This document shows positions 1,923 to 59,963 of a stretch of DNA of 64,000 nt, one piece after another. The notes under the pieces are model-generated. The model had not been told where the DNA came from and searched no databases. It saw only the letters and a list, made by a program, of their open reading frames with translations. Position numbers and translations under genes: made by a program. The DNA comes from Trichodelitschia bisporula (taxonomy: Eukaryota), in contig ML996688.1 of assembly GCA_010356995.1 (NCBI GenBank), positions 434,001 through 498,000 on the forward strand, given 5' to 3'. Position 1 is the stretch's first letter; every line of letters starts with the position of its first letter.

Positions 1923-4834
<2,912 letters not shown>

Positions 4835-5181: not shown

Positions 5182-5851
5182 CTGATGAAATTGCCGCTCT
5201 CCGCCTTTACTGCAACCGGTGCCACTGCCACGGCACGCCGTTATCGGTGGAGCACGATTATCTGCCCAGAAACTGAGCACTGAAGCATGCAAGTCACGAG
5301 CTTCACAAAGCGGGGGATTGGAAGGCGAAGTGATGTGCCCTGATGGCTGCTGGCTCACGCTTGCACAAGCATATCATCGTCTGATGGTCGTGGCTCGAAG
5401 ACTTTTTTCTTCCTTGTAACTTTTTTTAACGCAACCCTCCAAACCCCATGTCGGGATGCATGCGCTATCACTGAATTGTCCCATGATTCTCGTGGTAAGC
5501 AAGCCCAGAATCTTGCAATTCCTTCCACCTGCATCGGCAAATTTTCACTTGTCAAGTCACATAACTGTCTGAACTATTATCGTGCATATCAAAGACGCTG
5601 CATTGCCGTAGCCGAATCGAACGCCCCAGAAAAAATCAAAGACAGCTTGCTGAAGTCTGAGTCTCAAGGCGTGTAGCGCAACCGTCACGCCGGTATTCCC
5701 CCCCACCCATCGAAGAAGTATGATTACAAGGGCCAACCCCACAATGCACCGTAGCGGCCATGTACGAGCTGGTCATATCCACATAGCCGACGTCCGCTTG
5801 TTCTGCGGCTGGACCTAAACACCACCCGTGCAGATATCGGCCAACACTTTT

Positions 5852-6409
5852 CTACTTCTTGCTCTGGGTAACTGAGCCGGTCAGCTTCGTATCAGAAACC
5901 GCAAGGACAACTTACTTGGAACGACAATGACAATGACGAGAATAATGATGACAGCGGCGGCGATGCACATCCGCATCTTCATGTCCTTCCACCACATCTG
6001 CTTGCGCACACGGTTGGCTCCACGGCGGAAGCCCTGGGCCGACTGGGCGAGGTTGTCCGTCTTGCCTTGCAGCGAGTCCAGGTGCTCACCGCGCTCCGAC
6101 ACCTTGTTGATATTGTCACGCATGATGCCTACGGTGCTGTCGATTTCCTGGGCATGTCAGCTGCTGCCTCGGCAAAGGGCCATTCCGCAGTGCTCCTGAC
6201 ATCGCCAACTCAGTCAAACACAGAGGCCACCGTGCAGTGAGCCAGTGCGCGACGAAGCTGGACGTCAGGAGTACCGCGAACTGGAGTTGTAATAAACGTA
6301 CCGCTTGAAGAGCCGCGGTGCGGCTGTTGCCGCCCTGCGCCGTACCAGCTCCAGCATTGGGGCCGCCGGCGGGGATGTAGGGATCGTAGGGCTGGTTGTT
6401 GTCGGCCAT
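5852..6409 (-). CDS. SNC1: Synaptobrevin/VAMP-type v-SNARE
   Basis: YDPYIP N-terminus, R-SNARE motif [18 protein letters not shown]..., MWWKDMKM plus C-terminal TM. Exons 6409-6302, 6147-5916, 5871-5852. Confidence 0.97.
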
Positions 6410-8986
6410 TGCTTATGAGGTTGTGATGAAGAGAAGTGGGGGTCGGGGCTTGTAGAGGTCTGCTCGCACTGTGGAGACGTGCGGGCGTGGGTCGACAAAG
6501 AGCGTTGAGCGGCTTGTTCACCTGGGCGGCAGCCTGCGACAGGTGTCGTTTGAGGGAAGCGGGACCCAGTGAAGCTTCTGGGAGTGAATGGGCTGTGCAC
6601 TGGCAGGAGTGGGAAGTATGGTGATGGAATGCGAGGGCGGGTAGGATGGTAATGTCGATGGTGGATGGGGGTGGAGTTGACGTTGACGTGTGTTGGAGAT
6701 GAACCGGGGGAGGATGGATGATTGAGGTGATCAAGGCGAGACCGGCTTTCTTTTACTGCGACGGGCAGGCGCGAGTGAGTGAGCCCGTCCTTGGGCAAGT
6801 GAGAGTGAGACGCTGGGCGGCGGGGGGGCCAGGGGGGCGGGGGCTGGGCCAAAAACCCTTCTGCTCAGGCATCTGTGAGGCATTCTCACCAAATCTCGGG
6901 CTCCGACTTTCTCGGCCAACTCCTCCCCCACCAAAGGCGCTTACTGTGGCTGACACGTCAAAGCGGGAGGCACACTCGCCACACGCCACTGCTACTTCAA
7001 TCTGTACAAAGTGCGGAGTTACGCAACGTATGCGTAGGGCCTCGGAGTTAAATATAGGAAAGGATGCAGAAGCATATGAATAGCTGCCTACTACCGTACC
7101 CGTCTCTGTCTGGACGTTTGTCTCGCTGCTCGGACTTCTTCAGACTTCTCCCCTTCTTCAGACTTCTCACATCCGCCATCTGCATCACTTTCATCTCGAA
7201 CCTCTACTGAGCCTGAATCTCAGTAGCCGTTTTGTTTCACCCATCCACCCATACTGCGCTCCGAGTCTGGAAACTCGATGTGCCTCGTTTACTCTTCCAT
7301 TCCAGTCAAGAGGAGGAGCGGGCTTGTCCGCAATTAATGCACCACTTCCGGCCGGGGGTCGGTGACCACTCACTGGGTGCGGGGGGCCGACGACCTGAAG
7401 GTTGTGTCGCTGTTCAGCCAGACACAAGGCTGTGGTGATCCAGGCACGCAGCTGCTTTACTACGGTACTTGGCACCACAGAGCATCGAGGGAGGACTGAT
7501 ATACGTGGATCCGGCCTCGTCCGTCTTCGTTCTTCCGGTCAACTCTCTTGTTTCGATGAAACCATAATATGGCTGGATTCTGGGAGCGTTAAATGTTTGG
7601 TGCCGTCTGATACAGGATCCATCTTTCAACATGCACACGTTGCAAGGCTCCAGACCAGGCGATGTCGAGACTGTGGACTCTTACCAGCGCTTTCGCGGAC
7701 CGCCATGGCTATTTCTACGAGGGATGCGATGCCGCGCGTAACAATATGACCGGATTACGCGGGAGTTGAGGGTCGACACATGGCATGATATTCGGCATGG
7801 GTATGATGGGGGTTTCGGTGGGCCGTTACGGTATAAGCGGGTCCCGGGCTTTATGAAGCGTGTCAACAGTCCCGTTGGGGTTCCGATGCCATTTACCCTT
7901 GCTGATGGCATTGGTAACCTGATGGACGCGTTTACAGTGAGTACTGCTCTCGTCGTTCTATGATGATCCGATGCAATCCCTATGTTGTCCGGTTCGACTA
8001 CGGCTTCTTCCTCTCGCGTGGTAAGAGACAGGAGCAGGTCTACGAAGACTTTGAAGTGGTGACGAATGCTCGTTGCCCGGGAGGCGAGTTCCCGAGTGGA
8101 GGACGTCATCGTCTTTGCCTCCGAGCCTGCTTTGACAGCTTTTCATTGGCGCAGAGCCTCAGTTGCTGCGCCTCGCACCCTGGGACGGCTAGTTGCCGCA
8201 AACAGCCTAGTGGCCTGTGGAATCCTGGGAACGGGGACAAGATGTGACAGGCCAGGCTACAAATGAGGCCACAACAAGGCAACAAATACGGAAAACAAGG
8301 GGTTGAAGGGAGATGGAAAGAGGCGTAAGAGAGAAGCTGAGGAGGAAAGCGTGAGCGACTCCGCAGCCGCAGGACCCCCCCAAGGGAAGGGACCCAAAAG
8401 ACGATTCTCTTGTCTGGTGTTTCTTGTCTTTCTGTCCACCATTGCACATCATCATCACCACCCCCTCCCTCTACCCACACATTCCTACTCCTCCCTACAT
8501 CATCGTCGCTCTTTTGCTTTGATCAACAACTAAATCCGTACAGTAAACAATCAACTGCTGTTTCCTACTCTTGCACGACCAAGTACATAGGTTCTTCTAC
8601 ACCCAGCGCTTATAATTACCTAACCTAATCCATCGACCACCCACACCCACCCCCCCCCCCTTGAGCCTGCTTTCCTCCTGAGTTCCTTCCAACCGTCGCT
8701 TGCCGACCGACTCCAAGACCTCCAAGACCTCCGACACTCACCCCTTCACCTACCGCTTTCTCGCGACCTCGTCTCGGTCGTTCTTTGTTCGCCAATCCAC
8801 CTCTACCCTCGTCCCTCGTTTTCTACCTACAAGCACGCGCGGTGAATGACTGCGACATAATTCTTACTCTCTGTTGACGTCCTTCCGCGCTCCGCTACAG
8901 AGTCACCTCATCCATCCCGAGCTGTTGACGCTGGCGTTGACGCGCATCTTCGTCATTCCCGCACTTCTCTCCTCTCTCCATCAATC

Positions 8987-23700: not shown

Positions 23701-26680
23701 CCATCAAATCCGCTAAAAACCATGGCAGAGATACGTTCCCCACTGTCCCCCCCATCCCTGGAACTTATTTCGCCATCCCTGCCAGGCACGCCCGCCCCCG
23801 GCCCGGGCGGCGCGCACCCGGGGCGCAGGGATGGCGGACCCGGCGCCAGGGCGTGAATGCCGACGGCCAGGGTGAAATGGGAAGCACAATTGGGAGGCCT
23901 CGTAGGCGAGGAGAATCATAATTAGGGACTAGGTTAGCGAAGCGCGAGCGCGGGGGCGTGGGTACCACAAAGCCCCCGGGTTCGAAGGGGGGGCCAAGGG
24001 AAGATACCACATGTCCACCCGCTCGGGCGCGGTACTAGCACGACTAGCCCGGGATGATGGGGAAGTAGGTTGCCGTGGGGGACCATAATTAGAAAGCGCG
24101 ATATGGACATGGGCGGGAAACCGTGAATATTGATGGGAAATGCAATTTCCATGAGGGCCGGTGCTTCTCGGCCTATCGTCCCAGCCTTGCGACTTGGAGC
24201 TCGGGGCCAGCCTTGCTGCCTCGTGGGCCAATGATGCGTGTGGTAGGGTGCAGGAGTGGAGTGTCGACCACGCGGGATGGAGCCTGGGGTGTTTTTGGGG
24301 GTAGGTTTGTAGTTAGGACGGGTGTGCGGTACCACGTTGGCGAGTTTCGGCATCCCGAGGTTCGGGTCGGTCACAGGGACAAGGAAGTTGTGGTATGTAA
24401 GGCTCCTAGGGGAGATTGATATCATGTCCACGATACAGAGGCTTCGGTTCCTGAGGGGACGACGGATGAAGATGCTCCGACTCGCAGGCACCGTGTACGG
24501 TTTCTACGAAACACCGGTTGCAGCGTAGGTATGTACCTGAGTAGTACATGCAGTCATTCAACGACGCTGCAGGTTCGCCGTCACATATTCGCTGGTCATG
24601 GCTGTGGTTTCAGCGGTACTTGAACGGCTTGTCCTGCTAGGATATACTCTCTTGCACTCGAGTGGGGGTCGTGATCGCGTTAAGCTCTGGCCAGACCGGG
24701 CCGTTCCATGAAGCGAATCCCATTACCGCTTTGGGGGGTTGGTGATATCAATCGTGAACGGACCCATTCAACTTCGACTGTTTTCGGTCAGGGCAGGCTC
24801 TGCGCAAGGCTGTGCTCGCCTCTATCTCGTTCACCGTAGTAACCTAATCGTTCCCATCTTCCTCGCTGTCCCAAAGTGTCCTCGATCGCGATGTTGATCC
24901 ATCCCCTGGCCGGGTCATCAACTCGACCGCGCGATGCTCAATAAACATCGCCATCCATCCATCATAAGGCCGCGGGAATTACCCAAGGATAGTAACCGAT
25001 AAGAAAATCCCCGACGAACGACTGGCTGATCTACTCGCCATTTGCAATACGTCCAGGAACTAATCGATTCACGTTGATCAACGAAGGGATGTCGTTGTCG
25101 TTGGTCTGGCGCAAGCCGTTTTGCAGGGAAGATAAGTACGTGGAGGTCTTGACTCGGTATCCAGTGGCACAAGCTACCATATTGGGTCGCATAAATCCTG
25201 CATGAAGCTCATTTGTTAGAACAGTCGTGATAATTGGCTCGTCATAGCCATGGTCAATCTTCAGACCCGCTCCAGAACTCACTCTCAATTGGCACTTTTC
25301 GCCCCCTCGGACAAAATACCACAAATGCCTTTCGTCAAGCTACATAGACACGGGACAAGCGGGCATCAAGATATTGGCGCCAGTTCCAGATCACCAGTAC
25401 ATCTTCCCCACTCACCAATCACACACCAAAGACAAGGCAAAACGTCGTCACGACCCCACCCCAACCCGCAGGCTCCCAGGCTCGCACCCAGAACGCAGCT
25501 ATTTTTGCACCGCCCACCCGCAAGCTCGCCCCAACCACTCGTCCCCAGATCAGCGGGCAGACCCGCGCCCGCCACATTACCCACCTGCCCACGAAGTGCA
25601 AAGCAAAATATTGAACATTTCTCCGCCCGCCCACCGCGACGGCAAAATGCGCGATAAGCGAGCGCGTCCAAGCGTGAATCCCGCGTCCGTCATCAGCCCC
25701 GCCCTCTCGCGCTGAAGCCGCATAATCAGTCGGAGCCTCGCGGGAAAGAAACTTGCACGATCTTACCGGTAGAAAAGACGGTGACAAGAAAACCCGGACT
25801 CGTCGCCGCTATCTCCGCAAACCCGCAGGTCGTGCCTGCAGTCTACTGCGTACTAACTTACGCAGTACGTACGGTGGTCGCATCTCGCCATCGCCAGCCA
25901 TGCAGACACGCAGGCGGATCACATTACTGCCGATCTCCAGCTTCCGCTCCAGCAAACCACGTCAAAAAAACTCGCGCAAACTTGACAAGTTTGACAAGCG
26001 CCGCCCCGGAGTGGCGGCGGGGTCCAACTGCCCTGTTTCCCGGAGGCTGAATGTGCGGTCCGAATGCGGACTGGCGAGGTGCCCGATGAGGATGAGAGGA
26101 ACGCGTGGCCGTGCAGCGAGGGGCGGTCCAAGGTCGCCACGGTCGCTTAGCGTTGCTTGCGCCGGGCGCGCGTAGCTTGTTCTTGGTTAACTGCGGTGCT
26201 GGAATTCTTGGATGGAGCGCCGATGCGGGCATGCGTTGGCGATGAGTGGTTTAGCTTTGTGGGGGAACTTGGAGGTGCAGCTTCCCCGCTACTGCGGTAT
26301 TCGGTGGTGGGATAGCTTTGTGTGGATGGAGTTGTGATAGTTGATTCTGACAATTTTCATTCTCTCACAGCTCCTCCTACCCTAGTTCGAGATTCCAATG
26401 GCAACAGTTGAAATCACACTGTGAACCAGCCAATATGTGACAGAGTCTATCCGTGAACAACCGGAAACTGTAAGTGTCATTAGAATAAGCTCACAAGCTT
26501 GTCCGTCCACAGAGTGGGACAGCATTTTGGCCATGGACCACATCACTGGCAACGAGAAAAGATTACGAGATGAGAACGCCTTTCCTTCCTTGGTTAACCC
26601 GTTGATCGTGAACGAAATAGTACTACAGGAAAGGTCGATTTTTAAGCATCACGAGAACACCCTAAACCAATGCCTTCCGA

Positions 26681-41711: not shown

Positions 41712-44479
41712 ATGGCGTCTAACGCGACCAACCACTACCTTACAACAACATCATATAATCATTCCATAAAGCAGCTTCACAACCAACACGAACCTCCTTC
41801 CCAACATCGTCCAAGTCAAAACCAAGCTCATCTCCCGCCTTTAGGTCAAGCTCTCAAGTTACCCGGACTGTCGGGCCCGGACCCCGCCCTCAGTGTGAGC
41901 AGCTTGGATACTACATTAGGCGGAGGTGAGGATGCAAACGACACCACGGCAAATCTAAGTCCGCAACAGCCCGGCACGTCTTCGCACCCGGGGTGCGTCT
42001 CTCTGCCTTTCGCCGTGATGCCGAAAACTAATCTCGAGCAGGTCGGCTTCAAAAGGCCCCGAGTCAAAGCGCTCACGCGCTTGCGATTCCTGCCGTGGCT
42101 TAAAAGTCAAGTGCCAACCAGGGGGAGAGCATCCCCAAAACGCTTGTAGGCGATGTGCAAAGGCCAACCGCACTTGCATTGTTACGCCTCCGACGAAGAA
42201 GAGGACGAGGAAGACCGACAACAAAGTCGCCGACCTGGAACGCAAGCTGGACGAACTCAAAGCCAGGCTTGAGTTGACCGAGGAACAGAAAGAGAAGGAC
42301 AGGGCGAAGGAAAGGGCAAGGGACAGGCCTGAGGAACGGGATCCACCCACCATGATGCCCAAGCCTCCCGTCAAGAGGCAGCTAAGCCCGTCGCACTCCC
42401 CGTACGACTACTACCCACCGGACACGAAATCGGTTCCTGACATTCGCTCGTCTTCGCTGACGGTGGGACATGACGACAGATCACCGAACAAAAGATATCG
42501 CGTGTTGGGCAATGAAGTGAGTGTGCTTGTGGGGAGGGGATGTTCGCATGGTTGGCTAACTCGCTGTAGCCTCGATGTGGTAACGAGCGGTCTCAGAACG
42601 AGTTTGTGGAGAATGCAGGCCGAGACGAACGAGGGGCAAGCATCTACAACCAGCGGGGCCCTGTAGTTTTCGACCATTCGGATATTGATGGCAAAATCGA
42701 TGCGATCATCTCCCATCGAACCGCGGAACATCTCTTCGACCGTTACGTCCACGAGTTCGTACCTAACTTCCCTGCCGTCACCTTCCCGCCTGGAACCAAA
42801 GCCAGCGATGTTCGGAGAAACAAGCCTATACTGTTCTTGTCCATCCTCAGCAGCACGTGCTTTGGCGCCGGGCTTGATGATGACACGCAAAGTCGGTTGG
42901 AGGAGGTTCTGCGCGAGCAATTCGCGACCAGCATGTGGAAGAACGGAGAGAAGAGCTTGGAGCTGATCCAGTCCCTTCAGGTCCGTCCGTGTTGCGACTC
43001 GACGATGCGTTCTAACTTGCGTGTAGGTTGCAACGCTCTGGTACCGCCCTCCGGAAAACTTCGAGCAGCATATGCACTATCAGATGGTGCACATGTCTGC
43101 GGTTATGGCTATCGACATTGGTATGGGTAAGCGGGGGCCGGTGTGGAAGAAGCTTTTCCCCAATGACCAGCGGCCTCAAGACCAACGACCCCGACTCCCC
43201 AGTGTCCATGATAATGCCGAAGCTCGGCGGGCTTGGTTGGTGTGCTACTTTCTCTGCATCAGCATCACGATGATTCTGCGACGGCCCATCCTCGTTCGGT
43301 TTACAGACTATATGGAAGACTGCCTCGCCTACCTCGAGACGGCCGAGGATGCGCTTCCGTCGGACAAAATACTGTGCCAACACGTCAAGCTTGCCAATAT
43401 TGCCGAGCGAATCGCAGCGGAATTTCACATGGACGACCCAGCCGTCAGCCTTTCAATCCAGGATGGCAAAGTTACTACGAGCATCAAACGCTTTGAAGAA
43501 AACCTGGCCGATGTCCGGACTCGAGTCATCGATGACAAGGCCTTGTTACTCGCCGAGCATGTCACCAACCTCTATCTCCACGAAATCGCTCTACACTCAC
43601 AGAACAACGTCGAGGATTTCAAGACGCCGTTTACGGAAGAAACTTTCAAGAACTCAGCGGGCCCGAGTGTCCTTGGTCCTCATCACATCCAGGCCTTGAC
43701 AGCATGCCAAACGTCATGTCACAAGATCCTCCATACATTCCTGTCCCTTGAAATTGACGTCATCTACGTCTTGCCCGTCCTCTTTTGTGAGTGTGTGAGA
43801 TGCTGCCGATGTGCACAAGCTTACAAGTTTAGGTGTACGGTGCATTTACGCTATGGTAGTCATGATCAAGCTGTACATGGCCGCGAGCTCGGAGGATCTG
43901 GCAAACGTCATCAAGAAGGATGACCTTCGAATCGAGCAATACCTTGGGGAGCTGGAGCAGAGGTTCCAGACGATAATGTCGCGCGATGCGAGGAGCCCTC
44001 ATTCCAAATTCTTCTACGTCATCCGTCGCCTTGCCGAAAAGTATCAAAACATCAAGCAGGGCAAGGGAGGCCCCCTCAGCAGAAGGGCCACGCCTCCGAC
44101 AGGCCAAGAGGTCCGGCAAGCGGGGAACGCGGTCATGCAGCCTGCCCAAGGACTTGATCTCCTTAGCCAAGCAGCCATGGGGAACAACTACAGCAACGGG
44201 GCGATGCCGGCCAACGGGCAGGTCCAACAGCCTCCCATGGTACCGCAGGCGGGTTGGTACCAGCCGGTGTCAACGGATGCAGGCGGCATGCCCATGGACC
44301 CGAATTACCAGTATGCGGGTGGGATGCCCATGTACGACGCGTTCGACTACGGCCTCCAGGGGATGAACCTAGTGATCGACGGGGCGATATCCGGCCTTTT
44401 TGGGCCAGATACGTTCTGGAACGTGGATCAGTCTACGAATATGTATCCGCAGAACGGCGGAAATGGCGGATGGGGTTAA
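41712..44479 (+). CDS. Zn(II)2Cys6 transcription factor with fungal TF middle-homology region
   Basis: RACDSCRGLKVKC-x9-CRRCAKANRTC followed by a coiled coil; ARRAWLVCY motif. Exons 41712-41992, 42042-42516, 42570-42980, 43027-43786, 43833-44479. Confidence 0.92.
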
Positions 44480-45776
44480 AGGAGCAAGAGCCATTCCGAA
44501 AAAGTCGTGGCCGCCTTTGGCCAAGTTACTGAGTATAAGGCGGGAACTATTCCGGAGGCGTGCCATAACTTTTTTTCGGATGGCCCTTGGAGGAGACAGA
44601 GAATGATGAGGGGGTCATAGGCGTATTTTCGGGATTCGGATTCACCGGCGTCGTGGAGTCTTGGGCTACAGTGGGGTTGGAGGAGTTTGGTTGCTCAACA
44701 CATTCTTCAGTCGTGGGCAATTCAGGTAACGGGTGTTTGGAAAGGGCTGCGGAGTTGGAGGCGAATACGGGGAAGAGTAACACTCTGTACTAATCACTTG
44801 ACACTCTCATCAGTGTATATGTACATATGATGAATGCACGTTGACCAACGGCCAAGAATGAAGGGGGTCAGATGAGCAGGCAGGATGCAAGCACCTGGTT
44901 ACCGTACCGAGGACCGGTAGACTATCCCTGAGATGCTGTGCAGATGAACCGAGCATCCCGTATGGCGTGCGTACATGCGTAATGCACAATGCACACATGG
45001 CGACGGGGAGGGGGTTGTTGCAGCGCAACTGTGGCAGGCAGCGGGCAGGTGAAGCAAGCGAGCCAGCATCCTGTAAGCAAGCATCCTGCAAGCCCCTCAT
45101 CTCATCTTCGAGTCCAGATGGTTGAGGCCTCGGATCTCTTGTTTGCCCTTAGATGATGCCCCTCTACCGTATGCCCTCCAACCCCTCTCCATACTCACTC
45201 CCCCCTGGCGGTTCGGCGGGTTGGACTGTGCTAAATAAGGACTAGCGGAAGGTGGCTTGTTTGCGGGGTTTAAGCCTTAAAAAGGTGGCGCTATGACGCG
45301 CTAAGTTAAGGTTATTACCGGCGGTCCATGGGTGGGCCGAAGGGAAGGGAGTTGCCGTGTACGCCCCCTCAACGACCAAAAGTCTTTGCATTTGTTTGCG
45401 GGGAAACTTGCGCGAGAGATCCTTAGCATATCGTACCGTAACTTCCTGGCAAGGGTGGCAAGTGGATCAACTGAGACCAGTCTGTTCTCGGTGCTAGCTC
45501 GTGGTCCCCTGAGCCCTTTGAGCTTGTCAGCACCGACATCGCATCTCCTCGCCATCGCACTTCTCATGCTCTGTCATGAGCTCCCTCCCTTAGTTCTAGT
45601 ACATCCCCCTCCTTGAATACCAGTCGTTCTTAACTGCTATCCGAGCGGTGTGACGACTTCTCTATTTCCCCCACTCAACATTATTCTTACCGTTGGGAAC
45701 CTCCGCGACATTCCATGTTCCGCAGGGACGACACGAGCAGGAGCCCATACGTCATACATCACGGCCCTTCGCCATC

Positions 45777-57641: not shown

Positions 57642-59963
57642 ACAGCCACAGCCACATCCTCACCTCCGCCTCGCCCACCTTCCAACACCCCCACCAACCC
57701 CACCCCCGCCGCTCATTCCTCCCCTCCACCGCCTCCATCCTCGAAGAATCCGCCCCCATAAAACCCGCCTCAACAAGCTCCTCCTCAGACGACGAGCGTT
57801 CCTCCCGCCCCTCCGCCCGCTCCAGCATGACAAGCATGCACTCCGGCCCCAAGCGCATCGAAACAACAACCTACCACAGCCCCACCACCCCGCCTCTCTC
57901 CCCCCTCGCGGCCCCAGTGCCACGTCGCGCCTCGGACGCCAATGCAGCCCCCAAAATGGCCGACATAGTCCGCCTCATGCGCGAACCCAGCGTCCCCCCC
58001 CCTCCCCGGAGGCGCATGTCCTCCCGCCGCGGCAACAAGCTCCTCACCAAGCTGCACACCGACCCAAGCCCCACCCTCAGCGAAGCCGAGCGCGACCTAG
58101 AATCGCACCTCGGCAGCCTCTCCCCCGTCGACCAAGCCCTGCCCGCCTGGGCCCTCGCCCGCGCCGCCGCCACGCCCCCGCCCATGCCCCGCCGGTCCTC
58201 CAAGCGGCGCTCCGCGGCGCTCCCCGCGCGCCCCGTCCGCAAGCCCGTCGGCGGCTGGGTGCGGTTCGCGGAGCCGCTGCGCGCCCACCGCGGCCCGGTT
58301 GCGCAGTGCATCATTGGGCCTGCGGTGGTTGGGGGGGTGATTCGCGCGATGCTTGATGCGGCGGGGTGTTTGGCGGATTTGTGGGCGCTGGCGAGGGTGA
58401 GTCATGGGTTTTATGGCGTGTTTAAGGAGGAGGAGGGGGGGCTTGTGAGGGGGGTGGTTGGGAGGCAGTGTCCGGCTGCGGCGGAGTGGGTGCAGAGTGC
58501 GGTGGAGGCGGGGGATGGGGAGGATGAGGAGAGGGTGCGCGAGGTGGGCGCGGCGGAGTGGGTTAGGACGTATGGGTATGGGGCGAGGGTGGTTAATGGG
58601 GTTAAGCGCGTGCTTGCGGCGAGGTGTGCGGGGTGTTTGAGGCCGGAGATGCTGGCGGAGTGTGCGGCTGCTCCGGCGGATGAGGTTTTCGATCCGCTGA
58701 GGGAGGGGGGAAGTGGACGTGTTGATGCTGCGCTGTGGCGTATGTGGACGTTCGCGGGGGTATTTGGGCGACAGGGGCGTGCCGGGGATACGGTTGCGCA
58801 AAGGGACTGGCTACGTGGTGGGGAAATGGCGCATGCCGAGGGGTGCAGCGGGAGCATTATCGGCGCAGATGCGTTCTCCGTCTCCGCGACGCTGCTGGGT
58901 GCGCGTGAGTGGTTTGGCGCCGGGAACGGGCGCTCCGGACTCTCGCCCGAAGAGCTGTGGGATCTGGGCGAGGTGTGGGAGGCACTCACGGGGTTGCTAG
59001 CCGGCGACGAGGGCCTGCTGGGTCGCACGGATCTGGCGCGCGGGTATGGTGTGTATGACGCGCTGGGCGTGGAAGGCGGGGACGTTGAGCGCGAGGAGGA
59101 GATGCTTGGTTTGTCTTTCCTTCTTCCTTCTTTGAACCACCAAGCTAATCTCCCCCGCAGCCGAATGGCACGCCCACCTCCTCACCCTCGGCCTCTCCCC
59201 CCTCCTCGCCCTCGCCTCCGCATCCTCCACGCCCTCCACCCCCGCCACCATCGCCAACGTCCCCGCCTCCGTCTCCGCACCTTACGCCCTTGCCCGCGCC
59301 TCCGGCTGGACGAATTGGATCCCGCCGCCGGGGGCCTCGACGCGGCGCGGCTTCCTGGGCGCGGCGGTGCGGGCTGCGTACGAGGAGCGGCTGGCCGAGG
59401 CCTTTGCGCCCGAGGTACCAAGGCGGATGAAGGCGGTGGCTGTCCCCGTGTTGCAGCGGGAGCAGAGTCGCGGGCCGGTGTATGGCGGGGAGTGGCCTAG
59501 GCGGGGAGGGAGCGTGGGGTCTGCGGGGGAGGGCGTGCAGCGCGGGAGTTTGGATGTTGGCGTGGGCAGTGTGAGGGGGAGTCTGCGGTACAGTCTTTAC
59601 TCGGTGTCGACAAGGTGGGAGCCGGAGATGGAGCCGGAGCACGTGGATGGACTGGGGATTGCTGTGCCGGCTACGCCGACGGACGGCACAATGTACCCGC
59701 CAATGCCGGTGTCGCCGCCGCCGCCGCCGCCGCCCGCTGGGCATCCGGCGCTTGGGGAGGAGGACCCGCCGGCGTATTTTGGGGATGAGGGGATGCCCGG
59801 GGATGGGGCGTTGAATTCGGCGGAGAGGGCGATATTCCGGATTGTGGAGATGGGGTTTACGCCGGCGCAGGCGAAGGGCGCGTTGAAGATTACGGATATG
59901 GGGGATGGTTTGAGGGTGGATCGGGCGGTGGAGGTTTTGCTTAGGGGGTTGAAGATGCGGTGA
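56708..59963 (+). CDS. Fungal hypothetical protein with disordered N-half, (NS)n tract, globular domain and C-terminal UBA domain
   Basis: Long ORF. Intron 59109-59160 (GTTTGT..GCTAAT..CAG) joins in frame to the exon ending IVEMGFTPAQAKGALKITD...VDRAVEVLL (UBA MGF motif). Confidence 0.85.
57482..57645 (+). repeat. Coding microsatellite (AAC)n followed by (AACAGC)n, encoding poly-Asn then (Asn-Ser)n
   Basis: Read directly; in frame within the UBA gene. Confidence 0.95.

Follow-up and report, generated by a model that had tools for sequence, protein, structure and literature searches.

The window analysed here, that is, the whole stretch of 64,000 nucleotides of the Trichodelitschia bisporula contig ML996688.1, carries on its minus strand a gene encoding a v-SNARE of the Snc1/synaptobrevin type. 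Its coding part (5852..6408, 119 aa) was delimited by sequence, protein match and contig junctions, and the sequence resolves it into exon 1 (6408-6302), exon 2 (6147-5916) and exon 3 (5871-5852), the last of which closes with the stop codon TAG at 5854-5852. The exon 2 peptide is 100% identical to protein P0001 (119 aa, PF00957), which bears the source name synaptobrevin of Trichodelitschia bisporula, and by this protein match the host organism is a Dothideomycete. The homology search returned 2104 proteins at E ≤0.001, and the PF00957 domain was found in all of the best 120 of these 2104. With this domain, a C-terminal transmembrane segment and close orthologues, the product has the attributes of a synaptobrevin/Snc v-SNARE.

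Two introns interrupt the gene. Intron 1 (6148-6301, 154 nt, phase 0) lies between ..RTAALQA and EIDSTV.. and presents the 5' splice site GTACGT at 6296..6301, the branch-point motif CTGAC at 6156..6160, with its A at 6157 (intron nt 145) and 9 nt from the intron end, and the acceptor CAG at 6148..6150. Intron 2 (5872-5915) measures only 44 nt and has its branch A at intron nt 35. Both were followed in assembled contigs of the runs X1 to X4, which were labelled RNA by guess; X1 and X2 were taken as transcript-derived because their contigs skip both GT..AG introns. In these two same-organism runs (2 of 2, both from one sample) exactly 6148-6301 (154 nt) and 5872-5915 (44 nt) are removed, so that 6147 is joined to 6302 and 5871 to 5916 with 0 mismatches, intron 1 being bordered by CT..AC on the plus strand. 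The X1 contig, of 966 nt, is made up of three pieces (5484-5871, 5916-6146 and 6301-6647, the cut at intron 1 being placed at +1) and 0 other letters, whereas the X2 contig, of 732 nt, aligned to the window with 0 mismatches. The assembled transcript extends over 5484..6647, with a 5' UTR of ~239 nt and a 3' UTR of ~368 nt.

Since these contigs skip 6148-6301 exactly, the existence of intron 1 is confirmed, splicing in the assembled transcript goes to the distal acceptor, and the original prediction had the gene model right, including an intron 1 of 154 nt at 6301-6148. No joint other than the two intron junctions appeared among the 1 (X1) and 33 (X2) aligned records, contigs being blind to rare isoforms, and the interior of intron 1 was covered by no contig of the runs examined.

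Two further observations concern this junction and this intron. Record 11 of run X3, a transcript-like contig from another organism, matches exon 2 (6050-6147) with 14 differences in 98 nt and passes into exon-1-like sequence exactly at 6147, so that the junction is also used in a relative. In addition, the exon 1 frame is open through all 154 nt of intron 1 (a 98-codon open frame from stop to stop, 6116-6412, minus strand), and retention of the intron would give a longer aberrant product with no stop inside the intron.

The First Intron in Related Fungi

The length of intron 1 had been noticed as about three times the local norm. This stands with respect to the window, where intron 2 has 44 nt and a motif heuristic returned 19 short-intron candidates of 39-74 nt, all of them unverified, but the length is not special to this species. 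When metagenome contigs were scanned with P0001, 80 loci were obtained, about half of which are intronless, transcript-like contigs. At 28 genomic loci, corresponding to 21 distinct sequences, an intron with a clean GT...CTRAC...AG arrangement occupies the identical phase-0 place (..RT(A/Q)ALQA|EIDSTV..). The 21 distinct introns measure 62, 127, 189, 228, 253, 254, 255, 265, 268, 286, 289, 301, 301, 331, 334, 352, 387, 407, 428, 440 and 458 nt; thus 20 of the 21 are long (127-458 nt), several times what is usual for fungal introns. In this v-SNARE gene a long first intron is the rule, and the 154 nt of the window are near the short end. The SNC1 gene of S. cerevisiae has, we assume, a single intron after ..TAELQA, and if so the position is older than the split between yeast and filamentous ascomycetes.

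These relatives are distant, their exon 2 third-codon identity to the window not exceeding 0.68. A MAFFT alignment of 12 introns gave a mean identity of 38%, and in 12 of 12 pairs no conservation above that of synonymous sites was found, intron identity being below third-codon identity.

Structure and Stability of the Intron 1 Hairpin

Fold prediction on the minus strand revealed a rod-like hairpin of 105 nt at 6180..6284 (intron nt 18-122), composed of a 5' arm at 6284-6236, a GCAC loop at 6235-6232 and a 3' arm at 6231-6180. The minimum free energy structure contains 43 pairs (23 G-C, 12 A-U and 8 G-U), involves 82% of the hairpin bases and is interrupted only by three 1x1 mismatches, one 2x2 loop, which is the largest internal one, and three small bulges; the apical GGC.CACU/GGUGGCC helix forms part of it. 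Pairing of the arms through several G-U pairs and on into an apical helix was as originally predicted, and so was the shortening of the intron to ~50 effective nt, given that a tail of 17 nt on the 5' side and one of 32 nt on the 3' side leave 49 nt outside the hairpin (154-105). The same helix was recovered unchanged as the minimum free energy structure in a 274-nt pre-mRNA context.

The folding energy of the hairpin is -59.5 kcal/mol, compared to -37.5 ± 3.8 kcal/mol for 200 dinucleotide shuffles (z -5.85), none of which was as stable. The choice of this segment within the intron was corrected for by comparing the best 105-nt window of intron 1 with the best windows of shuffled introns, and the result was nearly the same (z -5.9, 0 of 25 shuffles). 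In a scan of both strands of the 64-kb window with 105-nt windows and a step of 20, the hairpin ranked 10th by raw energy among 6390 windows and 1st after regression on G+C content (-3.5 sd). The nine windows above it by raw energy have 71-85% G+C, versus 60% in the hairpin.

A search of Rfam over 5700-6800, with E values up to 10, gave no hit overlapping the intron and two chance-level hits outside it. No second copy of the hairpin or of the intron was detected with blastn-short and nhmmer either in the 64-kb window or in the 80 related loci; all matches were ≤17 nt and none was significant, the best one being to the branch-point region of one related intron (E 0.27).

These data bear on two possible origins or uses of the hairpin. 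One is that it is what remains of an introner-like element or of a symmetrical, proliferating intron such as those known from Dothideomycetes and Hypoxylaceae. The host is a Dothideomycete by protein match, introner-like elements are described as longer than regular introns and as having stable predicted structures in the part of PMC3609843 that was available, and the accessible portion of PMC8469720 reports symmetrical introns with inverted repeats of 45-55 nt and ~73% identity; intron 1 resembles both in being a long fungal intron with internal symmetry and a stable hairpin with G-U pairs. However, those elements, as far as these two sources describe them, are multi-copy, recently gained and provided with terminal repeats, whereas here 0 further copies were found in the 64-kb window and the 80 loci, the inverted repeat is internal, and the intron position is ancestral, being common to 21 distinct relatives, so that a recent gain does not apply. 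We consider such an origin very unlikely. A nested intron (stwintron) was rejected, since inspection of the sequence showed no internal donor with G at position 5, and so was a snoRNA, as no RUGAUGA motif was seen by inspection of the intron sequence and Rfam gave no match.

The other is that the excised intron, through its 43-bp stem, is a Dicer substrate giving milRNA-like small RNAs. Like mirtrons and fungal milRNA precursors, it would offer an intronic hairpin long enough for Dicer, with a nearly uninterrupted stem of 43 pairs whose largest internal loop is 2x2, and the transcript that releases the intron was assembled in both X1 and X2. Nevertheless, the hairpin does not reach the intron ends. 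Its 17-nt and 32-nt tails keep it off the splice sites, so by anatomy it is not a mirtron, and the mirtron-like precursor originally suggested was discarded. Besides, no Rfam family matched and no conservation was found among the relatives. Processing by Dicer seems hardly probable.

A Decoy Branch Point and Acceptor Inside the Stem

The 5' arm of the hairpin carries a second set of splicing motifs, at the place where it had been predicted: a branch-point-like CTGAC at 6264..6268, with its A at 6265 (intron nt 37), and a CAG at 6258..6260, which ends at intron nt 44. All the bases of both motifs are paired in the fold. A naive heuristic calling the first branch point and the first AG takes this decoy as the intron, and its geometry (44 nt, branch A at nt 37) is near that of the authentic intron 2 (44 nt, A at nt 35). 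If it were used, a 44-nt intron would be removed and translation would end at a stop codon at 6212-6210, giving a product of 36+15 = 51 aa with neither SNARE motif nor membrane anchor; the reading frame agrees in this with the original prediction, and the tail of the decoy frame is visible in the open reading frame 6210..6752. The stop lies upstream of intron 2, and a stop upstream of a later intron is the layout that usually triggers nonsense-mediated decay (NMD).

The description of this decoy as a normal 44-nt intron holds only in part, because its length matches that of intron 2 but the distance from its branch A to the acceptor G, 7 nt, is below that of the authentic sites (9-17 nt in 22 intron 1 sites and 9 nt in intron 2). 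The two motifs are separated by only 3 nt, and a fungal intron search tool requires, according to the available part of PMC9024468, a minimum of 4 nt between branch motif and acceptor, 6-7 nt being the commonest. Among the 19 unverified short-intron candidates of the window, with spacings of 2-10 nt, the decoy is one of the three shortest. Because of this short spacing, its competence as a splice site is plausible but not certain. In addition, the chance expectation of such a decoy in intron 1 is 0.24, and its burial alone is not significant because 82% of the hairpin bases are paired.

The 5' arm segment 6261-6267 also contains TGACGTC, which we take to be 7 of the 8 bases of the CRE/ATF bZIP palindrome.

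Modelled Accessibility of the Splice Signals

Partition-function modelling at 37 C gave unpaired probabilities of 0.000 for the decoy CTGAC and 0.006 for the decoy AG, compared to 0.60 for the true branch point, 0.65 for the true AG and 0.44 for the 5' splice site. In the model, then, the decoy sits in a stable helix and the authentic sites are accessible, which is the disposition of a structure-masked cryptic site. Between 15 and 60 C the paired share of the decoy never fell under 98% (≤0.016 unpaired at 60 C), and the decoy opened only above ~80 C; an unpaired probability of ~0.46 was reached only at 90 C, which places half-opening near that temperature. Forcing intron nt 32-44 open cost 20.8 kcal/mol in the model.

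The original prediction had proposed that the hairpin is a structure-controlled splice switch, possibly a thermosensor. A thermosensor was rejected because the modelled helix does not melt in the growth range; this argues against physiological temperature sensing and for a helix that would be constitutive. Of the switch, the thermosensor and the milRNA that had been suggested, none found support, and the thermosensor is the only one that a result directly contradicts, in silico. More broadly, a helicase, an RNA-binding protein or stress might open the stem and thus shift splicing to the proximal acceptor, yielding the NMD-prone 51-aa product and less v-SNARE. The near-native geometry of the decoy intron and the premature stop at 6212-6210 upstream of intron 2 would suit such regulation, and concealed branch sites regulate poison exons in animals according to the accessible text of PMC11162794. 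Moreover, besides its pairing with the decoy, the 3' arm segment 6207-6196 has a second potential partner in the true branch point and acceptor (6160-6149), to which it is complementary at 10 of 12 positions (inverted repeat I2), although this may simply reflect two copies of one splice consensus. Against regulation, only the distal junction was seen: no joint to 6257, the decoy acceptor, was present in the contigs of X1 and X2 (two runs, one sample), and contigs lose rare variants. The modelled opening cost of 20.8 kcal/mol and the pairing of the decoy to ~80 C point in the same direction, an alternative helix of 7 bp is no match for 43 pairs, and the hairpin should win kinetically, given that transcription completes both of its arms ahead of the true branch point. 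Finally, there was no match to a riboswitch or other Rfam family and no conservation among the distant relatives. Stress- or factor-induced opening is consequently improbable, and quite improbable is the specific version in which a protein- or helicase-operated switch tunes the dosage of the exocytic v-SNARE through a truncated, NMD-targeted isoform, the 3' arm pairing with either the decoy or the true site. If true, filamentous fungi would have here a first core secretion gene whose dosage is gated by structure, and RNA structure would be linked to secretory capacity.

The graph distance from the 5' splice site to the branch point was uninformative: its value of 32 was no shorter than in shuffles, which averaged 16 and were at ≤32 in 30 of 30 cases, and no trend was found in 21 relatives.

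Stems and Decoys in the Orthologous Introns

The main rival to a stem that hides the decoy is a palindrome that does nothing. This reading holds that an inverted duplication or a fold-back insertion occurred in a tolerant long intron, without effect on splicing, that the decoy is inert owing to its short spacing and that the helix is slowly decaying. Several properties of the hairpin are as it predicts. The palindrome is degenerate, the outer 24 nt of the arms being only ~79% complementary at the DNA level; the decoy spacing of 7 nt is under that of all 23 authentic sites; and the antisense strand also folds well (-44.3 kcal/mol, z -4.10), as expected of a DNA palindrome.

Folding of the orthologous introns is in part consistent with it as well. 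The RNAalifold consensus of six hairpin regions (52% identity) comprised 4 pairs at -1.04 kcal/mol in relatives too distant for covariation, and intron identity falls below third-codon identity; with third-codon identity at ≤0.68 the comparison lacks power, so this null on conserved pairing says nothing either way. Whole-intron z values in the relatives ran from +0.2 to -3.8 and were mostly mildly negative (30 shuffles each). In the best-window test, 20 orthologous introns gave +1.5 to -3.1, versus -5.9 in the window; in 6 of the 20, two of them near-duplicates, 0 of 25 shuffles were as stable. Within a trio of close relatives (L066:1114-1500, L068:1073-1500 and L062:575-1014, 93% column identity), L066 has neither arm of the stem that L068 and L062 share; it lacks a 9-nt segment (columns 142-150) and a 39-column segment (columns 207-245; 33 nt of L068 and 39 nt of L062), which indicates that these arms were gained or lost as a pair. 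From this loss and the varied z values it appears that stems arise and vanish in the orthologous intron, no particular one being conserved, and hairpin modules that come and go among close relatives are what a neutral origin would produce.

Three results speak against it. First of all, the helix of the window is far more stable than any stem in the 20 orthologous introns. Secondly, its divergence is biased by strand. The sense strand is 15 kcal/mol more stable than the antisense strand because it has 8 G-U pairs versus a single A.C mismatch, the mirror class. If a DNA palindrome decayed with no strand preference, the G-U and A.C classes would be equally likely, and at least 8 of 9 would have a probability of 0.02 one-sided and 0.04 two-sided; over all 13 diverged arm positions the p value went from 0.006 to 0.10, depending on the assumed share of transitions. 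This 8:1 excess is modest evidence that the pairing has been preserved in the transcript; a transcription-linked mutation bias acts in the same direction, in our judgement, and could partly explain it.

Thirdly, decoys are depleted from the orthologous introns. A decoy unit was defined as an internal CTRAC at least 28 nt from the donor with an AG 5-27 nt downstream, the authentic site being excluded. In 20 relatives, counted with one near-duplicate dropped and the window left out, 1 such unit was observed versus 8.0 ± 2.6 expected, and 0 of 500 dinucleotide shuffles had ≤1. The subset of 15 less-related introns gave 1 observed versus 5.49 expected (Poisson p 0.027). Both the sole surviving decoy, in L067, and that of the window lie in stems, with pair probabilities of 0.66/0.49 and 1.0/0.99, respectively. 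An exposed CTGAC..CAG would probably matter in this intron, and the best indirect argument for masking is that exposed decoys appear to be harmful here and that the one in the window may be tolerated because it is buried. The roughly eight-fold deficit with respect to shuffles suggests a purging of decoys from long fungal introns wherever structure does not conceal them; such purging may hold for these introns in general and is probably the point of the locus with the wider bearing. Taking both sides together, the neutral palindrome with an inert decoy is possible but doubtful.

A Putative Constitutive Mask and its Counterparts

The explanation that we favour, giving it an even chance of being right, is that a lineage-specific stem constitutively loops out the interior of the intron and hides a cryptic branch point and acceptor. 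A stable stem-loop would occupy nt 18-122 of an ancient and habitually long v-SNARE intron 1, and, both of its arms being transcribed ahead of the true branch point, the helix would form first and loop out two thirds of the intron. Two single-stranded stretches would remain, one of 17 nt following the 5' splice site and one of 22 nt leading up to the true branch A, a geometry like that of the ordinary 44-58-nt introns of this fungus. With the branch-point-like CTGAC and the CAG locked in the helix, the spliceosome would be presented with no branch point and acceptor other than the distal ones, and splicing would be constitutive. An inverted duplication inside the intron probably gave rise to the palindrome, which may since have been kept or tolerated at the RNA level. 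That the hairpin forms in vivo, has a causal role in the choice of acceptor and originated in this way is what we infer. The masking part of the original prediction is plausible.

Some points weigh against the mask. The decoy may be incompetent, with its 7-nt spacing and its 3 nt between motifs versus the 4-nt minimum given in the accessible part of PMC9024468; one point mutation would be a cheaper way to be rid of it than the upkeep of 43 pairs; introns of up to 458 nt are spliced at this place in relatives that have no comparable stem, so compaction is dispensable; and hairpins in this intron are labile, as L066 illustrates.

Most documented cases of intron stems steering the choice of splice site come from budding yeast and animals. 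In filamentous fungi, introns are very short and recognised by intron definition, and to our knowledge few such stems have been described there. The locus is a clean example: its stem of 43 bp encloses a decoy intron of near-native form, and the RNA contigs show a single, constitutive junction.

The nearest counterparts are the zipper stems of S. cerevisiae, reported in 32 of 88 introns by the accessible text of PMC12350175, which also finds stems to be enriched at cryptic 3' splice sites. In the zipper stems (RPS17B, RPL7A and others, as covered in the available portions of PMC12350175 and PMC2536676), as in intron 1, the interior of the intron is held in a loop and the splice signals remain single-stranded. 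Here the 43 pairs over intron nt 18-122 are placed between the 5' splice site (nt 1-6) and the branch A (nt 145), as in a zipper stem. However, the linker from intron nt 1 to the branch A amounts to 17+22 = ~39 nt, narrowly short of the 42-85 nt of yeast; that range was defined for the S. cerevisiae A complex, according to the same part of PMC12350175, and the 44-nt intron 2 of the present gene has its branch A already at nt 35. Other differences are that the stem is much longer (43 bp), that introns measure ~50 nt in the filamentous host, that the orthologues lack such a stem and that the fold is an in-silico one. Yeast stems that occlude cryptic 3' splice sites, such as those of RPS23B (PMC12350175) and COF1 (PMC3239191), again taken from the portions available, are alike in that structure hides a competing AG and enforces the correct one, whereas the stem of intron 1 is located upstream of the true branch point, and what it covers is a complete unit of branch point plus AG. 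By analogy, the hairpin would work like a yeast zipper stem and a cryptic-site-masking stem combined. The literature search found no paper mentioning structure in the SNC1 intron, and SNC1 does not occur in the main text of PMC12350175.

A more remote parallel is the poison exon of SF3B3, where, in the accessible text of PMC11162794, concealed branch sites lie in a stem-loop; in both cases the branch motif is in a stem-loop whose destabilisation would unmask it and lead to an NMD-prone isoform. That animal case is deeply conserved and its regulation was demonstrated, whereas here the contigs contained no alternative isoform and no conservation was found among the distant relatives.

Other Folded Segments of the Window

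The second-strongest hairpin of the window after G+C correction was found on the plus strand at 44481-44585 (-46.6 kcal/mol, 52% G+C, ~35 pairs), directly following an open frame whose end is at 44479. By raw folding energy the lowest values, in segments of 71-85% G+C, corresponded to 23741-23865 (minus strand), 3121-3225 (plus strand) and 58161-58345, the second of which is inside a long open frame of the opposite strand (2303-4834). The low energies of these three segments are probably effects of composition.
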